Assembly (NCBI RefSeq): GCF_003018235.1
Contig: NZ_CP027437.1
From: Escherichia coli
GTDB taxonomy: Bacteria > Pseudomonadota > Gammaproteobacteria > Enterobacterales > Enterobacteriaceae
Length of the DNA stretch: 64,000 nt
Strand: one strand, 5' to 3'
Made by a program: the position numbers and the translations under genes. Within the stretch, counting starts at the first letter, position 1; every line of letters starts with the position of its first letter. The notes under the pieces are model-generated. The model ran no database searches. It saw only the letters and a list, made by a program, of their open reading frames with translations, and had not been told where the DNA came from. This document shows, one piece after another, positions 30,474-52,777 of this stretch.

Positions 30474-30677
30474 ATGTTTGGTAACTTAGGACAGGCAAAA
30501 AAATATCTCGGCCAGGCGGCAAAGATGTTGATTGGCATTCCAGACTACGACAACTACGTCGAGCATATGAAGACCAACCATCCCGACAAGCCGTACATGA
30601 GCTATGAAGAATTCTTCCGCGAACGCCAGAACGCGCGCTACGGCGGCGATGGTAAAGGCGGTATGCGCTGTTGTTAA
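30474..30677 (+). CDS. yjiX: Small DUF466-family protein partnered with CstA-type transporters
   Basis: 67-aa ORF directly after btsT. Confidence 0.8.
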
Positions 30678-30687
30678 TGGAGAGAGC

Positions 30688-31644
30688 ATGAACCCGATTG
30701 CAGTTACCCTACTCACCGGTTTTTTAGGCGCGGGCAAAACCACCCTGCTGCGCCATATTCTTAACGAACAACACGGCTACAAGATTGCCGTGATTGAAAA
30801 CGAATTCGGCGAAGTCTCCGTTGATGATCAATTGATTGGTGATCGCGCCAGGCAGATCAAAACGCTGACCAACGGCTGCATCTGCTGTTCGCGCTCCAAC
30901 GAGCTGGAAGACGCACTACTCGACCTGCTGGATAATCTCGACAAGGGCAATATTCAGTTCGATCGTCTGGTCATTGAATGCACCGGCATGGCCGATCCCG
31001 GCCCGATTATTCAGACCTTTTTCTCCCATGAGATTTTATGCCAGCGCTACCTGCTGGACGGCGTGATTGCGCTGGTGGATGCGGTACATGCCGATGAGCA
31101 GATGAACCAGTTCACCATCGCCCAGTCCCAGGTGGGCTACGCCGACCGTATTCTGCTGACTAAAACCGACGTCGCAGGTGAAGCAGAAAAACTGCGCGAA
31201 CGCCTGGCACGCATCAACGCCCGCGCACCGGTCTACACCGTCACCCACGGTGACATCGACCTGGGCCTGTTGTTCAACACCAACGGTTTTATGCTGGAAG
31301 AAAACGTCGTCAGCACCAAACCGCGTTTCCACTTTATCGCGGATAAACAAAACGATATTTCGTCGATTGTGGTGGAACTGGATTACCCGGTAGATATCAG
31401 CGAAGTTTCCCGCGTGATGGAAAACCTGCTGCTGGAATCGGCAGATAAACTGCTGCGTTACAAAGGGATGCTGTGGATTGACGGCGAACCTAACCGCCTG
31501 CTGTTCCAGGGCGTCCAGCGCCTCTACAGCGCCGACTGGGACAGGCCGTGGGGTGATGAAACACCGCATAGCACAATGGTGTTTATCGGGATTCAGCTGC
31601 CGGAGGATGAGATTCGGGCAGCGTTTGCGGGGTTGAGGAAGTAA
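30688..31644 (+). CDS. yjiA: CobW/HypB-family (COG0523) metal-binding GTPase
   Basis: Start at MNPIAVTLLTGFLGAGKTTLL (P-loop) inside ORF 30604..31644; CxCC motif (GCICCS). Confidence 0.9.
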   Translation: MNPIAVTLLTGFLGAGKTTLLRHILNEQHGYKIAVIENEFGEVSVDDQLIGDRARQIKTLTNGCICCSRSNELEDALLDLLDNLDKGNIQFDRLVIECTGMADPGPIIQTFFSHEILCQRYLLDGVIALVDAVHADEQMNQFTIAQSQVGYADRILLTKTDVAGEAEKLRERLARINARAPVYTVTHGDIDLGLLFNTNGFMLEENVVSTKPRFHFIADKQNDISSIVVELDYPVDISEVSRVMENLLLESADKLLRYKGMLWIDGEPNRLLFQGVQRLYSADWDRPWGDETPHSTMVFIGIQLPEDEIRAAFAGLRK

Positions 31645-31653
31645 GGGGTTATG

Positions 31654-31680
31654 GGCCGGATAAGGCGCAGCCGCATCCGG
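31654..31680. repeat. REP element between yjiA and mrr
   Basis: gccggataaggcgcagccgcatccgg, near-identical to the REP at 20656. Confidence 0.55.
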
Positions 31681-31689
31681 TCTGATATT

Positions 31690-32604
31690 TCACTCAAAAT
31701 AGTCCATATCCAGTTTCGGCACCTTCAACAAACGTGAAGAAACCCCTACTTCGTTTTCGATCATTAAGTGCACCAGGCGTTCCCCATCAACCAGCACCAT
31801 ACCCTCGACGGATTGGGCAAAGTCACGCGCCTGAGAAGTAAATCCAGAAGTGGTAATAAACACCCCACGTTTCGCTTTTTGCCCAGCCAGTGCGCCGTAA
31901 AATGCCTGTAATTCTGGCCTGCCTACAGTATTCTGCCAACGTTTTGCCTGAACATAAACTTTCTCCAGGCCAAGTTTATCAAGCGATATCACACCATCGA
32001 TGCCACCATCTCCAGTACCGCCAACACGCTGCAAATCATCACGGTGGCCGCCATACCCCAGGCGATGCAAAACATCCAGAACAATGACTTCAAAGCGCGA
32101 AGGAGAAACCTGCAATAAGTTTTCCAGAACCTCATCAGCCACCGCATCACGAAGCTCTTTTAGCGCCTGATCTAACCGATCGTCCGGGCTGCTCTTTGCA
32201 AGTTCTTCATGATCGGGAGAGTCGGCTTTCGGATCTAAATCGACGGCATCCGGCCGTGACTTAAGTTTGACATTCACAAAATCGAAGGCCAGATGGTTCG
32301 TCTCCTGCTCCGTCATTGGCTGGGGATGAGACGCAACCCAGTCAAAACCCGCAGGAGTCAGGCACCATTTGCCACGCGACAAACTTTGCGACAACCCGGC
32401 ACGTTTTAAACGGTCATGCGCCCAGCCTGCACGATTTTTATAAACAAGTTGTCCGCTGGTAATGACTTTCGCTCGCTGGCTGTCATCCAGTCCTAATGCA
32501 TCCGCGGCAGCCTCATGAACATCACGCGCGGCTGCACCTTCCGGTTTTGTCGCCAGATAACGCAGAACAGGTTCAATAAATTTGTCATAGGTTGGAACCG
32601 TCAT
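31690..32604 (-). CDS. mrr: Type IV methyl-directed restriction endonuclease Mrr
   Basis: 304-aa ORF; C-terminal Mrr-cat PD-(D/E)xK domain; position flanking hsdR. Confidence 0.9.
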   Translation of the reverse strand: MTVPTYDKFIEPVLRYLATKPEGAAARDVHEAAADALGLDDSQRAKVITSGQLVYKNRAGWAHDRLKRAGLSQSLSRGKWCLTPAGFDWVASHPQPMTEQETNHLAFDFVNVKLKSRPDAVDLDPKADSPDHEELAKSSPDDRLDQALKELRDAVADEVLENLLQVSPSRFEVIVLDVLHRLGYGGHRDDLQRVGGTGDGGIDGVISLDKLGLEKVYVQAKRWQNTVGRPELQAFYGALAGQKAKRGVFITTSGFTSQARDFAQSVEGMVLVDGERLVHLMIENEVGVSSRLLKVPKLDMDYFE

Positions 32605-32791
32605 AGTACATCCTTGCAGAATCAGGTAGATGTTTTTCGGCTACTATAACACTACCAAAATAGGCGAACACGTTAGAAATGAGTCAGTTGCTGTGACCGT
32701 GGTCATTGCCCGGAAAGGTACAGAAAGCTAAGATGCGATGTTATGGGCCTTAAATATTTGGACAGGCCCACACAGCAATGGATTAATAACA

Positions 32792-35700
32792 ATGATGAAT
32801 AAATCCAATTTTGAATTCCTGAAGGGCGTCAACGACTTCACTTATGCCATCGCCTGTGCGGCGGAAAATAACTACCCGGATGATCCCAACACGACGCTGA
32901 TTAAAATGCGTATGTTTGGCGAAGCCACAGCGAAACATCTTGGTCTGTTACTCAACATCCCCCCTTGTGAGAATCAACACGATCTCCTGCGCGAACTCGG
33001 CAAAATCGCCTTCGTTGATGACAACATCCTCTCTGTATTTCACAAATTACGCCGCATTGGTAACCAGGCGGTGCACGAATATCACAACGATCTCGACGAT
33101 GCCCAGATGTGCCTGCGGCTCGGGTTCCGCTTGGCTGTCTGGTACTACCGTCTGGTCACCAAAGATTATGACTTCCCGGTGCCGGTATTTGTGTTGCCGG
33201 AACGTGGCGAAAACCTCTATCACCAGGAAGTGCTGACGCTAAAACAACAGCTTGAACAGCAGGCGCGAGAAAAAGCGCAGACTCAGGCAGAAGTCGAAGC
33301 GCAACAGCAGAAGCTGGTTGCCCTGAACGGCTATATCGCCATTCTGGAAGGCAAACAGCAGGAAACAGAAGCGCAAACCCAGGCTCGCCTTGCGGCGCTG
33401 GAAGCACAGCTTGCCGAGAAGAACGCGGAACTGGCAAAACAGACCGAACAGGAACGTAAGGCTTACCACAAAGAAATTACCGATCAGGCCATCAAGCGCG
33501 CACTCAACCTTAGCGAAGAAGAGAGCCGCTTCCTGATTGACGCGCAACTGCGTAAAGCAGGCTGGCAGGCCGATAGCAAAACCCTGCGCTTCTCCAAAGG
33601 CGCACGCCCGGAACCCGGCGTCAATAAAGCCATTGCCGAATGGCCGACCGGGAAAGATGAAACGGGTAATCAGGGCTTTGCGGATTATGTGCTGTTTGTC
33701 GGCCTCAAGCCCATCGCGGTGGTAGAGGCGAAACGTAAAAATATCGACGTTCCAGGCAAGCTCAATGAGTCTTATCGCTACAGCAAATGCTTCGATAATG
33801 GCTTCCTGCGGGAAACCTTGCTTGAGCACTACTCACCGGATGAAGTGCATGAAGCAGTGCCGGAGTATGAAACCAGCTGGCAGGACACCAGCGGCCAACA
33901 ACGGTTTAAAATCCCCTTCTGCTACTCGACCAACGGGCGCGAATACCGCGCAGCAATGAAGACCAAAAGCGGCATCTGGTATCGCGACGTGCGTGATACC
34001 CGCAATATGTCGAAAGCCTTACCCGAGTGGCACCGCCCGGAAGAGCTGCTGGAAATGCTCGGCAGTGAACCGCAAAAACAGAATCAGTGGTTTGCCGATA
34101 ACCCTGGTATGAGCGAGCTGGGTCTGCGTTATTATCAGGAAGATGCCGTCCGCGCGGTTGAAAAGGCTATCGTCAAGGGCCAACAAGAGATCCTACTGGC
34201 GATGGCGACCGGTACCGGTAAAACCCGTACGGCAATCGCCATGATGTTCCGCCTGATCCAGTCCCAACGTTTTAAACGCATTCTCTTCCTTGTGGATCGC
34301 CGCTCTCTTGGCGAGCAGGCGCTGGGGGCGTTTGAAGATACGCGTATTAACGGCGACACCTTCAACAGCATTTTCGACATTAAAGGTCTGACGGATAAAT
34401 TCCCGGAAGACAGCACAAAAATTCACGTTGCCACCGTACAGTCGCTGGTGAAACGCACCCTGCAATCAGATGAACCGATGCCGGTGGCCCGTTACGACTG
34501 TATCGTCGTTGACGAAGCGCATCGCGGCTATATTCTCGATAAAGAGCAGACCGAAGGCGAGCTGCAGTTCCGCAGCCAGCTGGATTACGTTTCTGCCTAC
34601 CGTCGCATTCTCGATCACTTCGATGCGGTAAAAATCGCCCTCACCGCCACCCCGGCGCTGCATACGGTGCAGATTTTCGGCGAGCCGGTTTACCGTTACA
34701 CCTACCGTACCGCGGTTATCGACGGTTTTCTGATCGACCAGGATCCGCCGATTCAGATCACCACCCGCAACGCACAGGAAGGGGTTTATCTCTCCAAGGG
34801 CGAACAGGTAGAGCGCATCAGCCCGCAGGGAGAAGTGATCAACGATACCCTGGAAGACGATCAGGATTTTGAGGTCGCCGACTTTAACCGAGGCCTGGTG
34901 ATCCCGGCGTTTAACCGCGCCGTCTGTAACGAACTCACCAACTACCTTGATCCGACCGGGTCACAAAAAACGCTGGTCTTCTGCGTCACCAATGCCCATG
35001 CCGATATGGTGGTGGAAGAGCTGCGTACCGCATTCAAGAAAAAGTATCCGCAACTGGAGCACGACGCGATCATCAAGATCACCGGTGATGCCGATAAAGA
35101 CGCGCGCAAAGTGCAGACCATGATCACCCGTTTCAATAAAGAGCGGCTGCCCAATATCGTGGTAACCGTCGACCTGCTGACGACCGGTGTCGATATTCCG
35201 TCGATCTGTAATATCGTGTTCCTGCGTAAAGTACGCAGCCGCATTCTGTACGAACAGATGAAAGGCCGCGCCACGCGCTTATGCCCGGAGGTGAATAAAA
35301 CCAGCTTTAAGATTTTTGACTGTGTCGATATTTACAGCACGCTGGAGAGCGTCGACACCATGCGTCCGGTGGTGGTGCGCCCGAAGGTGGAACTGCAAAC
35401 GCTGGTCAATGAAATTACCGATTCAGAAACCTATAAAATCACCGAAGCGGATGGCCGTAGCTTTGCCGAGCACAGCCATGAACAACTGGTGGCGAAGCTC
35501 CAGCGCATCATCGGCCTGGCCACATTTAACCGTGACCGCAGCGAAACGATAGATAAACAGGTGCGTCGTCTGGATGAGCTATGCCAGGACGCGGCGGGAG
35601 TGAACTTTAACGGCTTCGCCTCGCGCCTGCGGGAAAAAGGGCCGCACTGGAGCGCCGAAGTCTTTAACAAACTGCCTGGCTTTATCGCCCGTCTGGAAAA

Positions 35701-36304
35701 GCTGAAAACCGACATCAACAACCTGAATGATGCGCCGATCTTCCTCGATATCGACGATGAAGTGGTGAGCGTAAAATCGTTGTACGGTGATTACGACACG
35801 CCGCAGGATTTCCTCGAAGCCTTTGACTCGCTGGTGCAACGTTCCCCGAACGCACAGCCGGCATTGCAGGCGGTGATCAATCGCCCGCGCGATCTCACCC
35901 GTAAAGGGCTGGTCGAACTCCAGGAGTGGTTTGACCGCCAGCACTTTGAGGAATCTTCCCTGCGCAAAGCGTGGAAAGAGACGCGTAATGAAGATATTGC
36001 CGCCCGGCTGATTGGTCATATTCGCCGTGCTGCGGTAGGCGATGCGCTGAAACCGTTTGAGGAACGTGTCGATCACGCGCTGACGCGCATCAAGGGCGAA
36101 AACGACTGGAGCAGCGAGCAATTAAGCTGGCTCGATCGTTTAGCGCAGGCGCTGAAAGAGAAAGTGGTGCTCGACGACGATGTCTTCAAAACCGGCAACT
36201 TCCACCGTCGCGGCGGGAAGGCGATGCTGCAAAGAACCTTTGACGATAATCTCGACAACCTGCTCGATAAATTCAGCGATTATATCTGGGACGAGCTGGC
36301 CTGA
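32792..36304 (+). CDS. hsdR: Type I restriction enzyme R subunit (HsdR), family IA
   Basis: ORF 32738..36304, start at MMNKSNFEFL; SF2 helicase motifs (ATGTGKT, VVDEAHRG). Confidence 0.95.
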   Translation: MMNKSNFEFLKGVNDFTYAIACAAENNYPDDPNTTLIKMRMFGEATAKHLGLLLNIPPCENQHDLLRELGKIAFVDDNILSVFHKLRRIGNQAVHEYHNDLDDAQMCLRLGFRLAVWYYRLVTKDYDFPVPVFVLPERGENLYHQEVLTLKQQLEQQAREKAQTQAEVEAQQQKLVALNGYIAILEGKQQETEAQTQARLAALEAQLAEKNAELAKQTEQERKAYHKEITDQAIKRALNLSEEESRFLIDAQLRKAGWQADSKTLRFSKGARPEPGVNKAIAEWPTGKDETGNQGFADYVLFVGLKPIAVVEAKRKNIDVPGKLNESYRYSKCFDNGFLRETLLEHYSPDEVHEAVPEYETSWQDTSGQQRFKIPFCYSTNGREYRAAMKTKSGIWYRDVRDTRNMSKALPEWHRPEELLEMLGSEPQKQNQWFADNPGMSELGLRYYQEDAVRAVEKAIVKGQQEILLAMATGTGKTRTAIAMMFRLIQSQRFKRILFLVDRRSLGEQALGAFEDTRINGDTFNSIFDIKGLTDKFPEDSTKIHVATVQSLVKRTLQSDEPMPVARYDCIVVDEAHRGYILDKEQTEGELQFRSQLDYVSAYRRILDHFDAVKIALTATPALHTVQIFGEPVYRYTYRTAVIDGFLIDQDPPIQITTRNAQEGVYLSKGEQVERISPQGEVINDTLEDDQDFEVADFNRGLVIPAFNRAVCNELTNYLDPTGSQKTLVFCVTNAHADMVVEELRTAFKKKYPQLEHDAIIKITGDADKDARKVQTMITRFNKERLPNIVVTVDLLTTGVDIPSICNIVFLRKVRSRILYEQMKGRATRLCPEVNKTSFKIFDCVDIYSTLESVDTMRPVVVRPKVELQTLVNEITDSETYKITEADGRSFAEHSHEQLVAKLQRIIGLATFNRDRSETIDKQVRRLDELCQDAAGVNFNGFASRLREKGPHWSAEVFNKLPGFIARLEKLKTDINNLNDAPIFLDIDDEVVSVKSLYGDYDTPQDFLEAFDSLVQRSPNAQPALQAVINRPRDLTRKGLVELQEWFDRQHFEESSLRKAWKETRNEDIAARLIGHIRRAAVGDALKPFEERVDHALTRIKGENDWSSEQLSWLDRLAQALKEKVVLDDDVFKTGNFHRRGGKAMLQRTFDDNLDNLLDKFSDYIWDELA

Positions 36305-36505
36305 CACGTATACACTTCATCCTTCAGGCTGCCTCTGCGTTGGCTGCGCTCGTTCACCCCGGTCACGTACTTCTGTACGCTCCCGGGGATTCACTCACTT
36401 GCCGCCTTGATGCAACCTGAATGATTTTGTGTATATTACCCTCGGCAATTTCTTCTTCTACGGCCCCAAACAATGCGGGCCGTTGTTTAATTTACGGAAC
36501 TCACA

Positions 36506-38095
36506 ATGAACAATAACGATCTGGTCGCGAAGCTGTGGAAGCTGTGCGACAACCTGCGCGATGGCGGCGTTTCCTATCAAAACTACGTCAATGAACTCGC
36601 CTCGCTGCTGTTTTTGAAAATGTGTAAAGAGACCGGGCAGGAAGCGGAATACCTGCCGGAAGGTTACCGCTGGGATGACCTGAAATCCCGCATCGGCCAG
36701 GAGCAGTTGCAGTTCTACCGAAAAATGCTCGTGCATTTAGGCGAAGATGACAAAAAGCTGGTACAGGCAGTTTTTCATAATGTTAGTACCACCATCACCG
36801 AGCCGAAACAAATAACCGCACTGGTCAGCAATATGGATTCACTGGACTGGTACAACGGCGCGCACGGTAAGTCGCGCGATGACTTCGGCGATATGTACGA
36901 AGGGCTGCTGCAGAAGAACGCCAACGAAACCAAGTCTGGTGCAGGCCAGTACTTCACCCCGCGTCCGCTGATTAAAACCATTATTCATCTGCTGAAACCG
37001 CAGCCACGTGAAGTGGTACAGGACCCGGCAGCGGGTACGGCGGGCTTTTTGATTGAAGCCGACCGCTACGTTAAGTCGCAGACCAATGATCTGGACGACC
37101 TTGATGGCGACACGCAGGATTTCCAAATCCACCGCGCGTTTATCGGCCTCGAACTGGTGCCCGGCACCCGTCGTCTGGCGCTGATGAACTGCCTGCTGCA
37201 CGATATTGAAGGCAACCTCGACCACGGCGGCGCAATCCGTCTGGGCAACACTCTGGGTAGCGACGGTGAAAACCTGCCGAAGGCGCATATTGTCGCCACT
37301 AACCCGCCGTTTGGCAGCGCCGCAGGCACCAACATTACCCGCACCTTTGTTCACCCGACCAGCAACAAACAGTTGTGCTTTATGCAGCATATTATTGAAA
37401 CGCTGCATCCCGGCGGTCGTGCGGCGGTGGTTGTGCCGGATAACGTGCTGTTTGAAGGCGGCAAAGGCACCGACATTCGTCGTGACCTGATGGATAAGTG
37501 TCATCTGCACACCATTCTGCGTCTGCCGACCGGTATTTTTTACGCTCAGGGCGTGAAGACCAACGTGCTGTTCTTTACCAAAGGGACGGTGGCGAACCCG
37601 AATCAGGATAAGAACTGTACCGATGATGTGTGGGTGTATGACCTGCGTACCAATATGCCGAGTTTCGGCAAGCGCACGCCGTTTACCGACGAGCATTTGC
37701 AGCCGTTTGAGCGCGTGTATGGCGAAGACCCGCACGGTTTAAGCCCGCGTACTGAAGGAGAATGGAGTTTTAACGCCGAAGAGACGGAAGTTGCCGACAG
37801 CGAAGAGAACAAAAATACCGATCAGCATCTTGCTACCAGCCGCTGGCGCAAGTTCAGCCGTGAGTGGATCCGCACCGCGAAATCCGATTCGCTGGATATC
37901 TCCTGGCTGAAAGATAAAGACAGTATTGATGCCGACAACCTGCCGGAGCCGGATGTGTTAGCGGCAGAAGCGATGGGCGAACTGGTACAGGCGCTGTCTG
38001 AACTGGATGCGCTGATGCGTGAACTGGGGGCGAGCGATGAGGCGGATGCGCAGCGCCAGTTGCTGGAAGAAGCATTTGGTGGGGTGAAGGAATGA
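36506..38095 (+). CDS. hsdM: Type I restriction-modification N6-adenine DNA methyltransferase subunit (HsdM)
   Basis: 529-aa ORF with SAM-binding and catalytic NPPF motif (TNPPFGSA). Confidence 0.95.
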   Translation: MNNNDLVAKLWKLCDNLRDGGVSYQNYVNELASLLFLKMCKETGQEAEYLPEGYRWDDLKSRIGQEQLQFYRKMLVHLGEDDKKLVQAVFHNVSTTITEPKQITALVSNMDSLDWYNGAHGKSRDDFGDMYEGLLQKNANETKSGAGQYFTPRPLIKTIIHLLKPQPREVVQDPAAGTAGFLIEADRYVKSQTNDLDDLDGDTQDFQIHRAFIGLELVPGTRRLALMNCLLHDIEGNLDHGGAIRLGNTLGSDGENLPKAHIVATNPPFGSAAGTNITRTFVHPTSNKQLCFMQHIIETLHPGGRAAVVVPDNVLFEGGKGTDIRRDLMDKCHLHTILRLPTGIFYAQGVKTNVLFFTKGTVANPNQDKNCTDDVWVYDLRTNMPSFGKRTPFTDEHLQPFERVYGEDPHGLSPRTEGEWSFNAEETEVADSEENKNTDQHLATSRWRKFSREWIRTAKSDSLDISWLKDKDSIDADNLPEPDVLAAEAMGELVQALSELDALMRELGASDEADAQRQLLEEAFGGVKE

Positions 38096-39459
38096 GTGCT
38101 GGGAAATTGCCGGAGGGGTGGGAACAGATTGAAATAGGCGACATTGCTGATGTCATCTCTGGTGGGACACCAAAATCGGGAGTCGCTGAAAATTTTGCAC
38201 CTTCGGGTGAGGGAGTCGCCTGGCTTACGCCTGCCGATTTGAGCGGTTATAAAGAGAAATATATCTCACATGGTGCCAGAGATTTAACTACACTAGGCTA
38301 TTCCTCTTGTTCAGCAAAACTAATGCCCAAAGGCACTATACTTTTTAGTAGCCGGGCACCGATTGGATATGTTGCTATTGCTGCAAATGAGATTGCGACT
38401 AACCAGGGTTTCAAAAGTTTTGCTTTTCCTTCAGACATTTTTCCTGATTATGCATATTACTTTCTCCGCAACATCAGACATATTGCAGAGGAAATGGGCA
38501 CAGGAACAACTTTTAAAGAAATTTCTGGTAGTTCTGCGAAAACATTACCATTTGTTCTTGTACCGTTTGCCGAACAAAAAATCATCGCTGAAAAACTCGA
38601 TACGCTGCTGGCACAGGTAGACAGCACCAAAGCACGTCTTGAGCAAATCCCACAAATCCTGAAACGTTTTCGTCAGGCGGTTCTGGGTGCAGCGGTGAGA
38701 GGAAAACTAACTGAAGACTGGAGAGATAATTCAAGCCTGTCTGGGTGGAGAGAAGGCAAACTTGGGGAGTTTATAAAAAAACCAAGTTACGGAACGTCAT
38801 CTAAGTCTAATAAAGAAGGACTCATTCCTGTATTAAGAATGGGCAATCTTCAGGGAGGAAAGTTGGACTGGACGGATCTAGTCTATACGTCAGATACCAT
38901 AGAAATTGAAAAGTATAAACTTGAGTACAATGATGTATTATTCAATCGTACAAATAGTCCTGAACTTGTCGGGAAAACAGCCATATATAAATCAGAGCAA
39001 CCAGCTATTTATGCAGGTTATTTGATTAGGGTTCAATGTTTACCTGATTTAAACCCTGACTATCTTAACTACCATTTAAATAGCATTTTGGGGAGACAAT
39101 ATTGCTATTCAGTTAAATCTGATGGGGTCAGTCAATCAAATATTAATGCACAGAAATTAATTGCATACCCAATAACTGTTCCCCCCCTTCCCGAACAAGC
39201 TGAAATCGTTCGCCGCGTCGAGCAACTCTTCGCCTACGCCGACACAATAGAAAAACAGGTCAACAACGCCTTAGCCCGCGTCAACAATCTGACGCAATCC
39301 ATCCTGGCAAAAGCGTTCCGTGGTGAACTCACCGCCCAGTGGCGGGCCGAAAACCCGGAATTAATCAGCGGTGAAAACAGCGCCGCCGCGTTGCTGGAGA
39401 AAATCAAAGCTGAACGCGCAGCCAGCGGGGGTAAAAAAGCCTCGCGTAAAAAGTCCTGA
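38092..39459 (+). CDS. hsdS: Type I R-M specificity subunit HsdS, family IA conserved framework with two divergent target-recognition domains
   Basis: 455-aa ORF overlapping hsdM stop; conserved N-terminus, central and C-terminal EcoKI-like framework; variable blocks (~38130-38560, ~38700-39180) are AT-rich and unlike K-12. Confidence 0.9.
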   Translation: MSAGKLPEGWEQIEIGDIADVISGGTPKSGVAENFAPSGEGVAWLTPADLSGYKEKYISHGARDLTTLGYSSCSAKLMPKGTILFSSRAPIGYVAIAANEIATNQGFKSFAFPSDIFPDYAYYFLRNIRHIAEEMGTGTTFKEISGSSAKTLPFVLVPFAEQKIIAEKLDTLLAQVDSTKARLEQIPQILKRFRQAVLGAAVRGKLTEDWRDNSSLSGWREGKLGEFIKKPSYGTSSKSNKEGLIPVLRMGNLQGGKLDWTDLVYTSDTIEIEKYKLEYNDVLFNRTNSPELVGKTAIYKSEQPAIYAGYLIRVQCLPDLNPDYLNYHLNSILGRQYCYSVKSDGVSQSNINAQKLIAYPITVPPLPEQAEIVRRVEQLFAYADTIEKQVNNALARVNNLTQSILAKAFRGELTAQWRAENPELISGENSAAALLEKIKAERAASGGKKASRKKS

Positions 39460-39592
39460 TCATTATTTTCTGGCGCACCTTTCTGGTGCGCTATTTATTA
39501 TTTTTACGCCAATCATAACTCACACAAATATATTTAAATCGTTCCAGAAACTTCCCATTTTATTCTATTTTTAGCTGGACTTTCCCTGTATT

Positions 39593-39612
39593 TACTGATG
39601 ATATATCCAGGT
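39593..39612. promoter_or_regulatory. LexA (SOS) box-like site upstream of symE
   Basis: tactgatgatatatccaggt: CTG-N10-CAG core with AT-rich centre. Confidence 0.5.
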
Positions 39613-39639
39613 ATTTAGCGCGATGCGGATGTGCGCCAA

Positions 39640-39720
39640 CACACCCGCACCGCTCATCACAATCACTATTTATGGAGAATAGTAATCATGACTGACACGC
39701 ATTCTATTGCACAACCGTTC
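39640..39720 (-). ncRNA. symR: Candidate antisense sRNA SymR (type I antitoxin) overlapping the symE translation-initiation region; boundaries approximate
   Basis: Positional inference from the known symE/symR arrangement; not folded or promoter-mapped here. Confidence 0.35.
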
Positions 39721-40029
39721 GAAGCAGAAGTCTCCCCGGCAAATAACCGTCAATTAACCGTGAGTTATGCGAGTCGCTACCCGGATTACAGCCGTATTCC
39801 CGCCATCACCCTGAAAGGTCAGTGGCTGGAAGCCGCCGGTTTTGCCACTGGCACGGCGATAGATGTCAAAGTGATGGAAGGCTGTATTGTCCTCACCGCC
39901 CAACCCCCCGCCGCCGAAGAGAGCGAACTGATGCAGTCGCTTCGCCAGGTGTGCAAGCTGTCGGCGCGTAAACAAAGGCAGGTGCAGGAGTTTATTGGAG
40001 TGATTGCCGGTAAACAGAAAGTCGCGTAA
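39688..40029 (+). CDS. symE: SOS-induced toxin SymE (AbrB/SpoVT-fold endoribonuclease-like)
   Basis: Start at [15 protein letters not shown] inside ORF 39631..40029; 113 aa; between hsdS and mcrB. Confidence 0.85.
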
Positions 40030-40190
40030 CAGCGTTTACTCCCGGTTAACCACCGGGAGCTTTCCACTGACTCAATAGAAACTTTCCCCCTCAGTAAATA
40101 TTTACCTGCCTGATTGTGCAGTAAAAATCTATTGTTTCAGTACGTTGCGAAAGCGATAATAGAGGCTTAGCAATGAGGAAGGCACATCTT

Positions 40191-41570
40191 ATGGAATCAA
40201 TTCAAGCCTGGATTGAAAAATTTATTGAGCAAGCACAGCAACAAAGTTCACAATCCACTAAAGATTATCCAACGTCTTACCGTAACCTGCGAGTAAAAGT
40301 GAGTTTCGGTTATGGCAATTTTACATCTATTCCCTGGTTTGCATTTCTTGGAGAAGGTCAGGAAGTTTCTAACGGTATATATCCCGTTATTCTCTATTAT
40401 AAAGATTTTGATGAGTTGGTTTTGGCTTATGGTATAAGTGACACGAATAAACCACATGCCCAATGGCACTTTTCTTCTGACATACCTAAAACAATCGCAG
40501 AGTATTTCCAGGCAACTTCAGGTGTATATCCTAAAAAATACGGACAGTCCTATTACGCCTGTTCCCAAAAAGTCTCACAGGGTCTTGATTATACCCGGCT
40601 TGCCTCCATGCTGGACAACATAATCAACGACTATAAATTAATATTTAATTCTGGCAAGAGTGTTATTCCACCTATGTCAAAAACTGAATCATACTGTCTG
40701 GAAGATGCGTTAAATGATTTGTTTATCCCTGAAACCACAATAGAGACGATACTCAAACGATTAACCATCAAAAAAAATATTATCCTCCAGGGGCCGCCCG
40801 GCGTTGGAAAAACCTTTGTTGCACGCCGTCTGGCTTACTTGCTGACAGGAGAAAAGGCTCCGCAACGCGTCAATATGGTTCAGTTCCATCAATCTTATAG
40901 CTATGAGGATTTTATACAGGGCTATCGTCCGAATGGCGTCGGCTTCCGACGTAAAGACGGCATATTTTACAATTTTTGTCAGCAAGCTAAAGAGCAGCCA
41001 GAGAAAAAGTATATTTTTATTATAGATGAAATCAATCGTGCCAATCTCAGTAAAGTATTTGGCGAAGTGATGATGTTAATGGAACATGATAAACGAGGTG
41101 AAAACTGGTCTGTTCCCCTAACCTACTCCGAAAACGATGAAGAACGATTCTATGTCCCGGAGAATGTTTATATCATCGGTTTAATGAATACTGCCGATCG
41201 CTCTCTGGCCGTTGTTGACTATGCCCTACGCAGACGATTTTCTTTCATAGATATTGAGCCAGGTTTTGATACACCACAGTTCCGGAATTTTTTACTGAAT
41301 AAAAAAGCAGAACCTTCATTTGTTGAGTCTTTATGCCAAAAAATGAACGAGTTAAACCAGGAAATCAGCAAAGAGGCCACTATCCTTGGGAAAGGATTCC
41401 GCATTGGGCATAGTTACTTCTGCTGTGGGTTGGAAGATGGCACCTCTCCGGATACGCAATGGCTTAATGAAATTGTGATGACGGATATCGCCCCTTTACT
41501 CGAAGAATATTTCTTTGATGACCCCTATAAACAACAGAAATGGACCAACAAATTATTAGGGGACTCATAG
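40191..41570 (+). CDS. mcrB: 5-methylcytosine-specific restriction enzyme McrBC, GTPase/DNA-binding subunit McrB
   Basis: ORF 40173..41570, start at MESIQAWIEKF; AAA+ GTPase motifs GPPGVGKT and NTADRS. Confidence 0.9.
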   Translation: MESIQAWIEKFIEQAQQQSSQSTKDYPTSYRNLRVKVSFGYGNFTSIPWFAFLGEGQEVSNGIYPVILYYKDFDELVLAYGISDTNKPHAQWHFSSDIPKTIAEYFQATSGVYPKKYGQSYYACSQKVSQGLDYTRLASMLDNIINDYKLIFNSGKSVIPPMSKTESYCLEDALNDLFIPETTIETILKRLTIKKNIILQGPPGVGKTFVARRLAYLLTGEKAPQRVNMVQFHQSYSYEDFIQGYRPNGVGFRRKDGIFYNFCQQAKEQPEKKYIFIIDEINRANLSKVFGEVMMLMEHDKRGENWSVPLTYSENDEERFYVPENVYIIGLMNTADRSLAVVDYALRRRFSFIDIEPGFDTPQFRNFLLNKKAEPSFVESLCQKMNELNQEISKEATILGKGFRIGHSYFCCGLEDGTSPDTQWLNEIVMTDIAPLLEEYFFDDPYKQQKWTNKLLGDS

Positions 41571-42616
41571 TGGAACAGCCCGTGATACCTGTCCGTAATA
41601 TCTATTACATGCTTACCTATGCATGGGGTTATTTACAGGAAATTAAGCAGGCAAACCTTGAAGCCATACCCGGTAACAATCTTCTTGATATCCTGGGGTA
41701 TGTATTAAATAAAGGGGTTTTACAGCTTTCACGCCGAGGGCTTGAGCTTGATTACAATCCTAATACCGAGATCATTCCTGGCATCAAAGGGCGAATAGAG
41801 TTTGCTAAAACAATACGCGGCTTCCATCTTAATCATGGGAAAACCGTCAGTACTTTTGATATGCTTAATGAAGACACGCTGGCTAACCGAATTATAAAAA
41901 GCACATTAGCCATATTAATTAAGCATGAAAAGTTAAATTCAACTATCAGAGATGAAGCTCGTTCACTTTATAGAAAATTACCGGGCATTAGCACTCTTCA
42001 TTTAACTCCGAAGCATTTCAGCTATCTGAACGGCGGAAAAAATACGCGTTATTATAAATTCGTTATCAGTGTCTGCAAGTTCATCGTCAATAATTCTATT
42101 CCAGGTCAAAACAAAGGACATTATCGTTTCTATGAATTTGAAAGAAATGAAAAAGAGATGTCATTACTTTATCAAAATTTTCTTTTTGAATTTTGCCGTC
42201 GTGAATTACCATCTGTAAATACAACTCGCCCACATTTAAAATGGGATGCATCAAGCATATCGGATCAATCACTTAGCTTGTTACCTCGAATGGAAACTGA
42301 CATCACCATTAACTCATCAGGGAAAATACTTATCGTTGATGCCAAATACTATAAAAGCATTTTTTCACGACGAATGGGTACAGAAAAGTTTCATTCTCAA
42401 AATCTATATCAACTGATGAGTTACTTATGGTCGTTAAAGCCTGAAAATGGCGAAAAAACAGGGGGGTTATTAATATACCCACACGTAGACACCTCAGTGA
42501 AACATCGTTATAAAATTAATGGCTTCGATATTGGCTTGTGTACCGTCAATTTAGGTCAGGAATGGCCGTGTATACATCAAGAATTACTCGACATTTTCGG
42601 TGAATATCTCAAATAA
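41570..42616 (+). CDS. mcrC: McrBC endonuclease subunit McrC (PD-(D/E)xK)
   Basis: GTG start overlapping mcrB stop (VEQPVIPVRNIYYMLTYAWG) within ORF 41540..42616. Confidence 0.85.
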   Translation: MEQPVIPVRNIYYMLTYAWGYLQEIKQANLEAIPGNNLLDILGYVLNKGVLQLSRRGLELDYNPNTEIIPGIKGRIEFAKTIRGFHLNHGKTVSTFDMLNEDTLANRIIKSTLAILIKHEKLNSTIRDEARSLYRKLPGISTLHLTPKHFSYLNGGKNTRYYKFVISVCKFIVNNSIPGQNKGHYRFYEFERNEKEMSLLYQNFLFEFCRRELPSVNTTRPHLKWDASSISDQSLSLLPRMETDITINSSGKILIVDAKYYKSIFSRRMGTEKFHSQNLYQLMSYLWSLKPENGEKTGGLLIYPHVDTSVKHRYKINGFDIGLCTVNLGQEWPCIHQELLDIFGEYLK

Positions 42617-42638
42617 GCGGTAAGTTTTATAGAAAATA

Positions 42639-42665
42639 CCGCTCCCGACACCACATCGGGAGCGG
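42639..42665. terminator. Stem-loop between convergent mcrC and the large helicase gene
   Basis: ccgctcccga-caccaca-tcgggagcgg perfect 10-bp stem; T-rich tract on the minus-strand side. Confidence 0.55.
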
Positions 42666-42672
42666 CTCATCA

Positions 42673-45600
42673 TCAGGAGGCGATCACCTCCACCAGCACA
42701 TCCGTTGCCCAACTCTCTTCGCTGTTGGCGACATTCCCTTCCTTGCAGGCCTGAGCCATTTTGACTAACTGGAAAGAAACGTCATCGCGGAAATCAAAGT
42801 AATGCCATTGCGATGCAAAGTTGATGCGCCAGTAGCCCATCCCCTGATCGAAGCGGATCTTCAATACCTGACCATCATCAAAAGTCACCGTCAGTTTACG
42901 ATGGTGAGGGATATCGCGCGGCGAGTCGAACACCGTCAGTTCTACCGGCCTGCCCAGCGCAGCAGCAAACCACTGATCAGCGAAATCCTGAAAATCCGCT
43001 ATGCTCATCCAGTCATGGAAAGGCCGGTTACCGGGGCGATCTTTATCTTTAAATAGCGTATCCAGCGTCACTTCAGCGCCATCGGTCAGCTTTGTTTTTA
43101 GCGGTCTCAAAATTGATCCCAACAACGCCAGCGCAACCGGGTTTTGCAGATAGCGATCGGTATAGTGAACGCCGGTAATTCGCGTGTTATTCATCAGTGA
43201 CTGCGCTTCTTCATGGTCGTTAAACAGCACGTCCCAGAAGCGTTGCCCAAACTGCGACAGTGGTCCATTCAACTGTTTGTGGATCTGAATGTCTTTGACC
43301 CGCTCGACAGCGTTGGCGGCTTTAGCCGGCAGAATAAATTCGTTCAGCTCTACCGTTTTATAGCCGAGACTACGTACCACCAGTTCGTCATTCAGGTGCC
43401 ACTCCGGCCCCGGAATCGTTGCCTGCTGGCTACGAGAGGCCAGCGTCATCACGCGATCGGCAAAGGTGACCTGAGCAACGATCGGTAATTTCAAATCCTG
43501 TTCAACATGGCATAGCCGCACACCCAGCGCAGTAAATTGCGATAGTTCGTGCAACAGGTCCGGGTCATCCACTCCCGCAGGAATAACAAGATCGACCTCG
43601 ACGTTGTCTTTTAGCCGATAGTTCTGAACCGCCGCGCGGAACTGACGTGCGTATAAATCCCACTCATTGGGCGCGCCGGTCATCCACAGGGTGAGCTTTT
43701 CAGCGCCTTCGTTAATCGCCCGGCGAATCGTATCGCCAATGGCGCCAGGGCAGTAGCGGGCATCCGGCAGCGAGAATGTCTCTTCATCCGGTAAACCGAT
43801 GTAATACGTGAAGTCATCGCCAAGCCAGGCCAGCGCCGCTTTGCGATCCAGCAAATCGTGATCGTGGCGAGTCTGGGAATCAAGCAGGCATTCACTACAT
43901 GCAGTCTCACAATGGCGGCAGCCTAACTGTTTCACCATTCCCTGCAATATAGCTTCAATGTGTACCGGTGCGCTGGAGGCAAAACCTGCACCACCGCTGA
44001 TCACATCATAAAGCTGTACGGCTAATACCGATTGCCCATCCTCCAGTCTGACCGGACGTACAGAATAGCCGAGTTCTGCGGCGGAGATACCCAGAACGCC
44101 CGCCAGCGCCTGACGCAGAGCAACCGCCAGAGTCATGGCAACAATCCGCCCCTCCTCTGTGTTATCTGGCAGATACTCGCCGTTTTGCGGTTTGCGCAGA
44201 ATCATTTCAAAGACATCGGTGCGCGCCAGTGCGCCCAGGGTGACGTTCTTCATGAGTGCCGTCGAACCGGGGCAAATCAGACGATGATTCTGGCTGTCGC
44301 GATCCGCTTTACCCGGACGCGGTGGATAGTGAGCTTCCATGCTTTTCGGCGCATCATTTTCATTCAGCATCGACTCAGCACGGCCACAGCTCAGACACAA
44401 TGCATAACCGTGTCCACCTTCCCCCAAACTTTGCTGGAAAACATGCCCATCAGCCCCAGAAGCCATATAACCCATTAGCGGGTTAGGCAACGGTACGGGC
44501 TCTGCTTTAACAAAGACCCACGCGGGGACAACCGGGACGAATTTCATGGTTTCAATATTGTTCGTTACCGGAGCGTGTGCATCGGTGACAAACCCGGCAG
44601 GCTGCAGCACCTGACGGCGATTATCCATGATTATTTTTTCGCCGCAGGCGCTATTGGAGCAAAAGAGCATCCCGGAACTGCTCATCCCCTCTTCATAGCC
44701 AATGGTCCCGCATTTGTGACAGCGCCAGGCGCAATCCAGACGCTGGGCTTCATTGGTATCAGCATTAATGTTGTGCCAGTGCAGTGAGACACCGGCAGAG
44801 CGGAAGACACGGCCATCAAGAATGATCTCTGCTCCCGGTGCATATTCACGAATGGCAACACCGAGGTTACGGGAAGGTAATCCTTTATAACGGGAGACGT
44901 TATCTTCACGGTCCTTTTTATCACGACTTTTTTGCGATTTTTCGCGGATATAATCTTCCATTGTGAAGTTATCAAACGTCACTACATCTGTCGGGAAACC
45001 GTATCCCGGCAAGAAGGTTCTGGCAGCTAGATCGCGCAGCAGATACTCGCCACAGTGCCGTTTCTTCTCCAGCTCTATGCGCTTACGATAAGGCGTTTGC
45101 GGCTGCGACTCACGCTCCTGTGTCACGAGATCGCGATAAACGGAGAGCCACCGCTGCTGCAGGAAGGTGATCGCGTTGATTGTTTTATCCCGCAGATATT
45201 CGGCTCTTGCACCATGCAACGCCGTACCTTTCACCAGCCGTTCCAGCGCCGTGTCGATATCAAGAACAGGGCGTTCCAGCCAGACTTTGAAGCGTTCGCA
45301 TTTTGACTGCCCGTCATCTTCACCGAAAAACCAGAGGCTATCGAGGCTGGTTTTCTCTTTATCGGTTTCGCCAATAACGTTACATAAAAAGTCGGACAGT
45401 AATAATGCATTGACGTGACGTTGCACCAGTCGGGCGGAGTTCATCGCGACCATGGGTGCCGGGATCATGGTTTCAAATGGCCAGAGCGGGTTGGCAAAAA
45501 CCTGCTGGTCGTGTGGGTTACCTTTACATAGGGTGTAAGAGATCGCACGTGATTCTTTACTACGCCCGGCTCGCCCGGCGCGCTGTAAATAGTTGGCCGG

Positions 45601-48600
45601 ATGTGGCGGTACGTTGTTCATTACCACCGCAGTAATGCCCCCGATATCAACCCCCATTTCCATGGTGGTGGAACAGTTGAGAACATTTAGTTGCCCATTC
45701 TTGAACATCTTTTCATAGCTTTGCAGACGTTCTGACGACTGCTGGGCAGAGTGCTCGGCAGTGCGATAGTAGAAACCGCCTTCCACGACACGATCGTTGA
45801 TGTCTGTCCAGACGTTTTCCGACCGCAATTGTGCGATCAGCGGATCATTGCTGACCCAGTCGCGTGCTTTTGCCAGACCCTCTGCGTAGTCTTCCTGTGA
45901 ACGATCCAGCTTCCAGATTTCCGGCATGGTGACTTTCTGCGCGACAAAAGTGTCATATTGCGCCTGGGTAAGATGCTCGAACGAAATATGGGTAGGCAGA
46001 TAAGGGGTTAAGCCTTTAAAAGCCGTATCCAGGATTTTATTGGTTACCGGGCAAATCCAGGCATCCGTGATTAATGAAAAAGTCATATGCTCTTTCGGTA
46101 AATAAAAACGGTTGCCATCGGGTTTCAGTACTGCAAGCGGTCCGGTAAGTTGGGCCCATGCTTCTTTCAGCCATGTATTGATAATATCAATAGTCGCCGT
46201 ATTGACGGTTTTGAATCCAGCCCCCAGCATCAGTAACTTCGCTAAACGATGGGATACGTTGCCATTACGAATTTGAGGCCAGCGTCTGTTCTGATTATCT
46301 TCAGGATCTTTTGATTCCGGGTTACGGACGAATTTTGATGAAAAACGGCTACCGATCCAGTTTTTCAGCTCATCATCCAGCTGTGTGAAGTTGCTCTCAC
46401 GAACGTAATGATCCAGCGTAACTTTGAGAAAATCGCGCCAGTCATCCAGCGTTAATCCTTTTTCCTGCCAGTGCAGAGGGATCTTATGTATTTTCTCCAG
46501 CCCCAGGTAACCAACCTGAACCAGCCCTTGTGTTTCCAGGCTGTTAGTCCGTTTAGGGCGACGCATGAATTCCCGGAATAACAACATTTCCGAAAGCTTT
46601 AGAGGCCCGCCGTTTTCATTAAACACTTCAGGCTTAAGATAATGGTTATATTGCAGAACCGGGCCACGGATATCGGCTCTCTCTTTAAGCTCGTTAACCA
46701 TTTCTGTCCAGGTTCGGGATACCAGAGTAATTGCAGCTTTTCCACCGATTGCAGACTGGTAAGCCTGTTCAAGCTGCTCGGCCTGCGCTTCTGATAATTT
46801 CGCTTGATCCGGCAATCCCCAGCTTCGATATTCTTCTGCCTGCTCACGGGCTTGCTTTACCCTGGTCGCTAATTTTTCCAGATCGGCATTAGCGTTCGGC
46901 GCCGTGGGCGTTTGCGTTCGTTGATGCCAGCTCAGAATTTCGACTACGCTTCCGCGTAAGCGACTACGTTCTGCTTCTTGCTGCATACGCACCGCCATCC
47001 GGGCTGTCCCTTGTCGACTATCCGTAAAGGTAATGAGTCGACGTCCTCGCCCTGGCAACGAATCTGGTCCGACGCCCTCTTTGCCTTCATCACTGGCAAA
47101 GTCCTGACAATACTCAAGAACGGTGGGAACGATATTAGTAACGTAAAATGGCCCACCTAATAGTGCACGCCGGAAGGGCTGTTTCCCGCTCATGCCTCTG
47201 AAGCCACAGCCGCTGGCGCTACAAACCTGTTCAATATCATTAATAATCAGCGGAATGCTGTCATTATTAATAACGCCAATACGGCGCGTCTGACGGTCGA
47301 GGCGTTGTAGGGTATAGCCTGTCTCGCTGGTCTCTCCTGCGGCAATAATCAACGGAGGCTGGAAACCGTTCTCTTTTTCGACTTTTTCCTCTGTAGTGTC
47401 ATGTTCAACAGGTACTTCATCCTGCAAGGAGAACTCATCGCCACCTTTATTTTCCCATTGGACAAGTTTGCCCTTTTTGTCCTGCGCCAGAAGATGAGGC
47501 TCATTACAATCATTACAGAACGCCACTTCGTAGACAGGGCTTCCACAGTCGCAATTTTGTCGCTGGTTCACATACACATAGCCAAAGGGCCAGCCTTTTT
47601 CGAGCGGTGTACCGTGCTTTAATCTGCAATCTTTATCAACACAAGCCCATATTCCCTGGGTATTACGCTGGAAGATATGCGCCCTGACTTTAAGAAATGC
47701 GGGATCCTTTGCATTAGGTTGAGTCCCTGAACAGACATCGATCCAACGCAGTACTTCCTGCTGGCTGTAATGCTGTTTTGTCAGCGCATTTAACCGCTGC
47801 GTCATCTCATCCAGTTTCATTGGATTAGGTTGGCTAACCAACATTTCACGTATGTAACGCGCTTCGGGGGAGTGCGTAAGCGCATAAAAGCGCTCAGGAC
47901 TTATCCCTTTAATTTTATTATCATTTTTATCTTTTAGATCCAGATCAGGTATTTGCTCTATTTCGTCTAACGGAACAGAAACGTTTTTGGATGGTTCCAG
48001 TTCAGGAATCACCCGACTTCCGTCCAGAACATCGATGCGCTCCTGCGGGATACCGGATAATTCAGAGAGAAATTTTTTCAGCTGCTTTTCAGCGTCGCTG
48101 CCGGCAATGGTCGCAGAGGTCGCTACAAAGCGCACGTCATCTGGTGTCACGCCAAACGCTGTCATCACACGACGCAGCTGGAGCGCCAGTTCAGCGGCCT
48201 GCGACCCGACATAGGTATGCGCTTCATCCAGTACAATCCAGCGTAGTGATTTTTGTGCTTTAGATTGCTGGATAATCGGGGCGTCGACCTGGCGAACCAT
48301 CATATATTCCAGCATCGTGCCGTTGGTCACCAGAATCGGCGCAGGTTCTTCACGCATTTTTTCGCGCGAGAGCACCTCATTCGGCCTTTTTGCCTGTTCA
48401 CTTTTTACCGAAGCGTGTAGGTTTTCGGTGTTGCCGTTGTAAAGGCAGTAGCGAATCCCAGTACCAAAACCACGCGTCCAGGCATCCAGACGCTCGCGCT
48501 GTGAATTAATCAAGGCGTTCAATGGATAGAGAAAAAGGGCTCGGACACCAACCAACGGATTGTTGCCATTTTCATGCAGTTCCCGGTAAAGATCTTCCAG

Positions 48601-49017
48601 CACCGGAACCATAAAACATTCCGTTTTACCTGAACCCGTACCACTGGTTACCACCACTGAATGTTTCTTTTCCAGCAAAGCTTTCCAACTGGCTAACTGG
48701 TGTGTAAAAGGCTTCCAGTCAGCACCAAATCGGTACCGGCCATTACTCTGATTATCCAGTGAATCAACCACTGCTTTGCTCAACAATGCGTTGCCTTCCG
48801 TCAGGCTGCGCATCGTGTGATTTGACTCCTTCCATCCAAACATTTGCTGGAATACCGGAGAAGCAAGGAATGAGCCCGGTTTCCCACAATCAGCCCCCAT
48901 TTGTTGCGCGAGATGTTCACGCAGCTGCGGGTTGGTAACGCCCATGATACTGAGCGTTGCTTCAGTTGAACGAGACAACGATTGTTCAATAAGTGACGAA
49001 AAATAGCGTGTAGTCAT
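42673..49017 (-). CDS. Giant (2114 aa) DEAD/DEAH-box SF2 helicase with zinc-ribbon/DUF1998-like cysteine clusters; candidate DruE-like effector of a Druantia type III-like defence module
   Basis: Single uninterrupted ORF; Walker [15 protein letters not shown] box VLDEAHTY, motif [11 protein letters not shown]; Cys clusters [42 protein letters not shown]; family assignment is by pattern recognition. Confidence 0.7.
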
Positions 49018-50818
49018 CCTTATTCCTTTTTATTTTTTAGCAACATAACGCAACAGGCTGCACTGAAAGATGGTCTTAAACCAGCGGGAATCGAAGTCCC
49101 TGACTTACCTCAGGAAAAATACGGCACCGGGTTTACGGTCAAATACAGCTTCAAAAGAAGTATTTCCGCTTGCCACAGCTGCAGCGAAGACGGGTAACCA
49201 GGCCACGGAATAGCGGTGATTTGCGTCAGGATTAATACCAATCACTGGATTTTTTTGTGACATCATCCATTTATACAGACGCTTGCAGCCATATTCAGGC
49301 CAGCGAGCTTCACTGTGCTCACGTAAAAGCTCCTGATACCACCCGTGGACACAAGATTCAGGAATAGACGGAGGGAGATATCCGTTACTTAACCATTTCT
49401 CAATTTCATCGGCATATGTCGGGAACACGAGCCCCAGCCGTTGAAACATATTAGTAACCAGTAATTTCTGGGTTTCCTCCGGTGCACCTTTTTGGCTCAG
49501 GAACAATTTGAAACGCTCAGATGCAGCTTTGATCTCAAAGATGGGGAAAAACTCCCATAGAATAGGGAACTCATTCTCAATACGACTCAGGTACTCTGCT
49601 GACATTTCAAATTTGAAGAGCGACATCGCCAATGCCTGCGGATGCTGCACTAGTGCACGCCATACTTCAAAGGTTGCCAGCGGTAAATAACCAAATTGAT
49701 CGTACAGGCTACGCATAAATTGCCAGCCGGAATGGGCAGGATCGTTAGCCATCTGTCCGAGAACCAGTGTGATGGTATTAACTTCTGCCTGTGGATTAAA
49801 AAGCTGGGTCGCTTTCTGCAATGAGCGGATGTTGCTTTCTTCTACCGGTAACGAAGATTCGCCACGAATGAAGCAGGGGCGAAAAGCCATCTCCTCACCC
49901 GGTTTAGGAACAACCAACCATGGCCCATTTTTGTTAACGATTGAGCTCAACTCATATTCACCGACAGGCACTCCCTCGCTCATTCTTGATGCTAAGGGGA
50001 TGGATTTCCTCTCGGGTTCACTTAACAGCATGATAACGGGGGAAGGAATCTGCCCAGCACGATGGTTCACTGACTGGCTGAGTAATAGTTCTTTTTCATA
50101 ATCATAGCGCAGGCTGTATTTATAGCGACGAATTTGCCAGGCCATGACCACACCTGCCCCCGTAATACGCATCTCAACAACCTGATCAATACCTGCCTCA
50201 AGTGAAATCAGGTTCTCAATATGTTCGCGCAGACTATAGAGATTCAATTCAACAGGACGATCGCTCAACGCCGTATAACACCATTCATGCCATGCCTGTA
50301 ATCCACTAACGGAGCGCAAATACAACTGCAATGTATATTTTGTCGGCTCACCATTTCTGGAGAACAGAAACGCTCTGGAACCCAGCAGATCATGCAGCGT
50401 AATGTTTTTATCCAGAGGACGTCCGTTTACATCAAGAGCGAGACAGCCTTTAGCGGGAAAAGGTAACTCAATGTCGATGGGGTCAGCCGCCAAATTAGGC
50501 AGAACTTGTAATGTAATAAATGCCGGAGGTACCCCTTCCGCTTTAAGTTGTATCTCTGTTCGCCCCTCAGTACGCTTACGTGTAGCCTCCAATGTTTTAT
50601 CTTTAAGTTTTGCTACACAAGGATGCTGTGTGGTGATTAAGATAGTGCCTTCATTTGCGTGCATTCCACCTTTTATCTCAATACTGAAATCAGCAGGCAA
50701 GATACCGATTTTGCGACGCAAGAGCGTTTCATTGTTACTATTACGGATAGAAAGATATTGAGCCCCCAGCATCTCTTGTATATGACATTGCTCAATTGAA
50801 ATTCCGCTCAGGTAACGC

Positions 50819-50823
50819 GTTAC
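50819..50823. repeat. Target-site duplication GTTAC (left copy)
   Basis: Identical 5-mer directly flanks both IS termini. Confidence 0.8.

Positions 50824-52777
<1,954 letters not shown>

Follow-up and report, generated by a model that had tools for sequence, protein, structure and literature searches.

The hsdS gene of an Escherichia coli immigration control region is the EcoUTI89I allele and very probably encodes a type IA specificity subunit for CCA(N7)CTTC

The hsdS gene at 38092..39459 of the window (the whole stretch of 64,000 nucleotides of E. coli DNA that was analysed, from contig NZ_CP027437.1 of assembly GCF_003018235.1) is identical to hsdS of uropathogenic E. coli UTI89, both in its DNA (1368/1368 nucleotides) and in its product (455/455 amino acids; WP_001272440.1). 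Judging from the sequence, it very probably encodes the EcoUTI89I-allele specificity subunit of a functional, non-phase-variable type IA system, an isoschizomer of Eco646I. Because hsdS is identical to that of the characterised EcoUTI89I system, the window system is predicted to recognise CCA(N7)CTTC. The allele is common and has already been named and characterised, and there is nothing new in hsdS itself.

The gene is an intact, ATG-initiated open reading frame of 455 amino acids on the + strand (ORF listing), and its start codon overlaps the stop codon of hsdM in the sequence ATGA (38092-38095). Its product was matched twice by Methylase_S (PF01420, E = 4.6e-41; Pfam) and over its full length by the type I specificity profile of PADLOC (592 bits). 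The translation starts with MSAGKLPEGW, contains FAEQKIIAEKLDTLLAQVDSTKA and FAEQKIIAEKLDTLLAQVDSTKARLEQIPQILKRFRQAVLGAAVRGKLTEDWRD, and has AERAASGGKKASRKKS as its C-terminal end. The genes of the system, the parts of hsdS and the element that follows it are listed here.

32792..36304, + strand: hsdR, type IA restriction/translocase subunit, 1170 aa; 99.0% amino acid identity to K-12 and 99.7% to UTI89; PADLOC REase_I, 2807 bits, full length.
36506..38095, + strand: hsdM, type IA m6A methyltransferase subunit, 529 aa; 99.6% amino acid identity to K-12 and 99.4% to UTI89; PADLOC MTase_I, 768 bits.
38092..39459, + strand: hsdS, specificity subunit, EcoUTI89I/Eco646I-type allele; open reading frame with two Methylase_S matches and 100% identity to UTI89 hsdS.
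38092..38121, + strand: N-terminal conserved segment MSAGKLPEGW, aa 1-10; 10/10 identical to EcoKI HsdS; GC 0.60.
38122..38565, + strand: TRD1, the N-terminal target-recognition domain, aa 11-158; 15-35% identity to EcoKI per 20-aa bin; GC 0.423.
38566..38727, + strand: central conserved region with the first dimerisation helix, aa 159-212; 90-100% identical to EcoKI; GC 0.48.
38728..39180, + strand: TRD2, the C-terminal target-recognition domain, aa 213-363; 10-50% identity to EcoKI per bin; GC 0.358.
39181..39459, + strand: C-terminal conserved region with the second dimerisation helix and the tail, aa 364-455; near-identical to EcoKI; GC 0.565.
39471..39493, + strand: terminator-like hairpin with a T-run; a consensus match only.

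The start of hsdR was taken to be the annotated one (MMNKSNF); the mechanical open reading frame reaches upstream to 32738. The hairpin lies 12 nt past the hsdS stop codon and consists of a stem of 9 pairs, 6 of them GC, followed by TTTATTATTT; from its sequence, it is likely to mark the end of the hsdM-hsdS transcript. The gene order, yjiA-mrr-hsdR-hsdM-hsdS-symE-mcrB-mcrC, is collinear with that of K-12. The system thus occupies the allelic site of type IA systems in the immigration control region, beside mrr and mcrBC.

EcoKI of E. coli K-12, the prototype of type IA, served for comparison. The hsd locus of K-12 MG1655 was retrieved and its HsdS was globally aligned with that of the window. 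The two proteins (464 and 455 aa, respectively) were 46.5% identical overall, and this identity was distributed very unevenly. When calculated in bins of 20 amino acids, it reached 90-100% in aa 161-200 and 381-455 of the window protein, but just 10-50% in aa 21-160 and 221-360. From aa 367 to the end of HsdS, a single substitution (E423/D) separates the window protein from EcoKI. The same pattern was found in the DNA: BLAST against K-12 matched only 38567-38681 (97.4% identity) and the part from 39193 on, and K-12 genomes covered 28% of hsdS in the megablast search, corresponding to its conserved parts only. The conserved N-terminal, central and C-terminal regions and the domain order S1-D1-S2-D2 of type IA specificity subunits are all present, and HsdR and HsdM are closely similar to the EcoKI proteins (1158/1170 and 527/529 amino acids identical, respectively).

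These results bear out what an earlier note, made from the sequence alone, had claimed: that HsdR and HsdM are K-12-like (here 99.0% and 99.6% amino acid identity), that HsdS keeps the EcoKI-type N-terminal, central and C-terminal framework (here 90-100% identity), and that the two variable blocks in between are AT-rich and unlike EcoKI. The GC content is indeed 0.423 in TRD1 and 0.358 in TRD2, versus 0.549 in hsdM and 0.541 in hsdR, and neither block is related to EcoKI in its DNA sequence; their amino acid identity to EcoKI is low, at about 15-30%. High identity of these blocks to EcoKI HsdS, an outcome that the note had named as speaking against its claim, was not found.

What the allele recognises is known from work on UTI89. 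REBASE lists the UTI89 system as S.EcoUTORF5051P and groups it with others into a set of 104 E. coli systems that has Eco646I as its prototype (PMC8287963); Mehershahi and Chen formally named it EcoUTI89I (NAR 2021; PMC8287963). SMRT sequencing of UTI89 detected m6A at 737/754 CCA(N7)CTTC sites and at 749/754 sites on the complementary strand, and deletion of hsdSMR led to the loss of methylation at CCA(N7)CTTC alone (PMC8287963). Plasmids with one or two CCA(N7)CTTC sites were subject to methylation-dependent restriction in UTI89 (PMC8287963). When the hsdS of MG1655 was put into UTI89, restriction switched to AAC(N6)GTGC; UTI89 hsdS was also installed in MG1655, and this reciprocal swap exchanged the specificities (PMC8287963). 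K-12 HsdM and HsdR also work with the UTI89 S subunit, according to the same study (PMC8287963). The primers that were published for knocking out hsdS in UTI89 have homology arms identical to the two ends, of 50 nt each, of the window hsdS. Together with the identity of the two genes, these data support the proposal of the earlier note that this is a type IA hsdS with a target other than that of EcoKI.

Eco646I itself, CCANNNNNNNCTTC, was identified by plasmid transformation tests (PMC2490747). It and Eco377I are the two type I specificities found most often among clinical E. coli (PMC2490747; PMC3874165, Table 1). As in an isoschizomer of Eco646I, both TRDs of the window HsdS match the S subunit of the measured CCA(N7)CTTC specificity; the link between the allele and Eco646I is made through the REBASE grouping quoted in PMC8287963. 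The full-length allele was found by megablast in 223 of the 5426 complete E. coli genomes, in all cases at 99% identity or more and always on the chromosome. Its carriers include, among the listed examples, UTI89, APEC strains O1:K1:H7 and O2:K1:H5, and an O15:H18 strain labelled ST69. In nearly all genomes, this search found a single hsdS place.

We considered the possibility that the window system retains the EcoKI specificity, AAC(N6)GTGC, despite the divergence of its HsdS. Nothing beyond the shared framework favours this, and the TRDs are only 10-50% identical per 20-aa bin. Moreover, the system methylated only CCA(N7)CTTC in UTI89, where plasmids with EcoKI sites were restricted only once MG1655 hsdS was in place (PMC8287963). 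In view of these published swap experiments, we give no credence to a retained EcoKI specificity and reject it. The opposite possibility, that of an undescribed specificity or a new combination of TRDs, could be entertained because both TRDs are unlike those of EcoKI and many TRD combinations exist in E. coli. Yet the gene is 100% identical to a UTI89 hsdS of measured specificity and is present in 223 complete genomes. Its identity to a measured allele makes a novel specificity vanishingly improbable, and this reading was also rejected.

Another possibility is that the hsd genes, although intact, give a silent or defective system here, for instance because of loss-of-function substitutions in HsdM or HsdR or because they are not expressed; the allele would then be without phenotypic consequence. 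HsdM and HsdR each differ by 3 residues from the UTI89 proteins, and a scan for sigma-70 promoters upstream of these genes gave no convincing candidate on the + strand; a 10/12 match occurred just once, on the - strand (36307-36279). The allele is also naturally knocked out elsewhere: IS1 interrupts it in N31, and in MS20654 the gene is truncated or split. The promoter scan was, however, simple and insensitive, and the intergenic regions are about 98% identical to their counterparts in K-12 and UTI89. As the three genes are intact, full-length open reading frames, at least 99% identical to working K-12 or UTI89 versions, we consider a silent or defective system quite unlikely and retain the view that an EcoUTI89I-type system very probably functions in this strain. 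Phase variation of this system was rejected as well. A repeat search in 36300-40100 yielded only short imperfect repeats, and none of the features of phase-variable systems (extra hsdS copies, inverted repeats, a recombinase or SSRs) was found. UTI89 likewise has no phase-variation features (PMC8287963).

In type IA systems, one HsdS and two HsdM form a maintenance methyltransferase, which becomes an endonuclease with two HsdR; each TRD reads one half-site and the two conserved helical regions set the length of the spacer (PMC3874165). The window system would be expected to work in the same way. The methyltransferase would consist of one HsdS and two HsdM, and the addition of two HsdR would turn it into the restriction enzyme. 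The HsdS helices (aa 159-212 and 364-455) would keep the TRDs at a fixed spacing, such that both TRDs would jointly recognise the bipartite site 5'-CCA(N7)CTTC-3'. One adenine per strand would be N6-methylated, in CCA and in the complementary GAAG, whereas HsdR would respond to an unmethylated site on incoming DNA with ATP-driven translocation and cleavage.

The strain should therefore restrict DNA with unmethylated CCA(N7)CTTC, and from this predicted restriction, better transformation is to be expected with DNA prepared from an allele-bearing host or with site-free vectors. The window contains 9 CCA(N7)CTTC sites, versus 8.1 ± 2.6 expected by chance, which led us to reject an avoidance of the target site. 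In UTI89, no effect of the methylation by this system on gene expression or virulence was found (PMC8287963). Since this null result was obtained with the identical allele, no regulatory role is to be assumed here.

The two TRDs are also found apart from each other. The DNA of TRD1 was present in 242 E. coli genomes and that of TRD2 in 278, compared with 223 for the whole allele. All these matches were at least 95% identical and in the same chromosomal locus. Fifty-five of the 278 TRD2 matches were at 95-99% identity; among these, four examples at 97.4% carry only a generic S-subunit annotation, and the one that was retrieved, from ZYB62, has a different TRD1. Among the E. coli DNA matches, there were no plasmid copies of TRD1 or TRD2, and the search disclosed no diverged TRD relatives that would link to another named enzyme. 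The HsdS of Tig228 (WP_077492872.1) has a TRD1 that is identical at the amino acid level, within the same framework, but an unrelated TRD2. Conversely, that of ZYB62 (WP_000042302.1) shares TRD2 (97.4% DNA identity) and the same central and C-terminal framework, but has an unrelated TRD1 and another N-terminus, MSKNW. That other E. coli pair TRD1 or TRD2 with a different partner shows natural TRD shuffling. Essentially no variation was seen in the central and C-terminal regions of the four alleles that were aligned. Hybrid S genes arise through crossover in the central conserved region (PMC3874165), and the region at 38566..38727 is the crossover site for TRD exchange.

A larger unit has probably moved between lineages. 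In an ungapped comparison of the window with UTI89 (30474-40025), there were 171 mismatches, none of which fell in the following block.

37979..39998, no strand assigned: zero-difference block with respect to UTI89, 2020 bp in an ungapped comparison; presumed recombined cassette.

This block spans the last 117 nt of hsdM, hsdS, the intergenic region, symR and nearly all of symE. Upstream of it, there are about 6 mismatches per 250 nt, corresponding to a divergence from UTI89 of about 2.4%. Such an identical 2.0-kb block next to flanks that are about 2.4% diverged indicates that the allele was exchanged between lineages as a cassette. No close match to the 18 kb of 32000-50000 was found in complete E. 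coli genomes. The best match to this region, MEI003, showed 99.0% identity over 95% of it, with flanks at 98.5-99.8% and a different hsdS; such flanks around a different hsdS are a further argument for cassette exchange. We would put at about even the chances that a recent replacement of the specificity cassette between lineages took place, with the SymE/SymR toxin-antitoxin module carried along. The E. coli hsd locus is known for exchanging cassettes between lineages, and diversification by exchange of TRDs or cassettes has been described since the StySP/StySB hybrids. The window provides one more case of such TRD- or cassette-driven diversification at this locus.

The assignment of the half-sites to the two TRDs can be approached through related enzymes. 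Wherever type IA enzymes have been dissected genetically, the N-terminal TRD recognises the 5' trinucleotide and the C-terminal TRD the 3' tetra- or pentanucleotide (PMC3874165). From this rule, and from the kinship of TRD2 to TRDs that read 4 bp, TRD1 would read CCA and TRD2 would read CTTC. Full-text literature searches with the motif strings and Eco646I returned no half-site data at the level of TRDs. TRD2 is most similar to TRD2 of EcoKI, which reads GTGC (65 bits). It also aligns with TRD2 of S.BsaXI (39 bits, 30% identity), the specificity subunit of a type IIB enzyme with the site AC(N5)CTCC, whose TRD2 contacts CTCC in a cryo-EM structure (PDB 8w0p). Although S.BsaXI belongs to another enzyme class, its contact residue Arg351 aligns with R286 of the window protein; at the remaining four contact positions, the two proteins have different residues (D/G, T/S, M/Q, K/N), which would fit a related yet different 4-bp half-site for TRD2. 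The methylated adenines are presumably A3 of CCA and the second A of GAAG. If so, they would be separated by 8 bp, and 8 bp is also the interval between methylated adenines listed for EcoKI (PMC3874165).

TRD1 in turn aligns with S.MjaXI of Methanocaldococcus jannaschii, a type IA-like S subunit of solved structure (PDB 1yf2) with the same domain order, S1-D1-S2-D2, as the window HsdS. TRD2 of S.MjaXI is 40% identical to the window TRD1 over 166 aa (105 bits), and its TRD1 is 32% identical to the same domain. It differs from the window protein in being archaeal, in having conserved helices that are unrelated in sequence and in matching the window TRD2 weakly. If the window TRD1 reads CCA, one may speculate that MjaXI reads a CCA-like half-site in both of its halves.

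Of the two systems closest to that of the window, EcoKI shares with it the locus, the gene order, the hsdM/hsdS overlap, and nearly all of HsdR (99.0%) and HsdM (99.6%). It differs in HsdS, where both TRDs are replaced, and in its site: AAC(N6)GTGC has a spacer of 6 rather than 7 nucleotides and differs from CCA(N7)CTTC in both half-sites. EcoUTI89I, in contrast, has an HsdS that is 100% identical to that of the window, and its type IA operon, hsdR-hsdM-hsdS, likewise lies between mrr and symE. Here the differences lie around the gene: the window hsdR and hsdM are 2.4-2.5% diverged from those of UTI89 at the DNA level, and 3' of symE, the window carries mcrBC and Druantia III genes, in place of which GmrSD/DUF262 genes are present in UTI89.

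The window and UTI89, the uropathogenic strain carrying an identical hsdS, show no differences over 2020 bp (37979-39998), with flanks that are about 2.4% diverged. This block spans the 3' end of hsdM, the specificity gene hsdS, symR and symE. Because it is identical between diverged flanks and covers both the SymE/SymR toxin-antitoxin module and hsdS, the two appear, from this sequence comparison, to move together. The antisense RNA overlaps the 5' end of symE, directly 3' of hsdS:

39617-39693, minus strand, SymR antisense RNA (Rfam RF01809, 95.8 bits)
39688-40029, plus strand, symE

The same arrangement follows hsdS in K-12.

The hsdS allele was also found in disrupted form. In strain N31 (NZ_CM165896.1) it is cut in two by an IS1B-family insertion, and in strain MS20654 (NZ_CP082083.1) hsdS matches at two separate places, the larger match comprising query nt 191-1368 only. 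Judged by their sequences, both strains look like natural knockouts of this allele.

The first target-recognition domain of the window HsdS (TRD1, 38122-38565) resembles both such domains of the archaeal specificity subunit S.MjaXI (PDB 1yf2): identity is 40% to its TRD2, with 166 aa aligned, and 32% to its TRD1. The recognition sequence of S.MjaXI has been reported as unknown, and the likeness might permit a guess at its half-site.

CCA(N7)CTTC, the target measured for the identical UTI89 allele, occurs in the window as often as expected by chance (nine sites), and one third of these sites fall within the hsd operon itself:

38066-38082, two overlapping sites, 3' end of hsdM
38752-38765, one site, inside TRD2 of hsdS

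At the hsdR end of the operon, the mechanical open reading frame reaches 54 nt further upstream than the annotated gene (32738-32791), giving the N-terminus MLWALNIW... rather than MMNKSNF; in K-12 and UTI89 the downstream of the two starts is the annotated one. Elsewhere in the window, three tandem tRNA genes (1053-1372) have identical Rfam scores and are probably the tRNA-Leu cluster that E. coli is known to carry in this chromosomal region.

The AT-rich genes mcrB and mcrC (40173-42616; GC 0.32-0.44) are adjoined by a Druantia type III defence locus (42673-53943), in which druE is intact and druH (yjiT) is in two pieces with an IS21-family element between them:

42673-49017, minus strand, druE (2114 aa; PADLOC DruE3, 2697 bits)
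49105-50853, druH piece (profile positions 500-1074)
50910-51932, plus strand, IstA-like, IS21-family element
51929-52711, plus strand, IstB, IS21-family element
52762-53943, druH piece (profile positions 114-501)

The Druantia system of the window is probably inactive. In K-12 the same Druantia genes are pseudogenes, and in MEI003, the best match to the flanks, druE is interrupted by IS30. K-12, like the window, has AT-rich mcrB and mcrC genes, whereas UTI89, despite its identical hsdS, has GmrSD/DUF262 genes in place of mcrBC.
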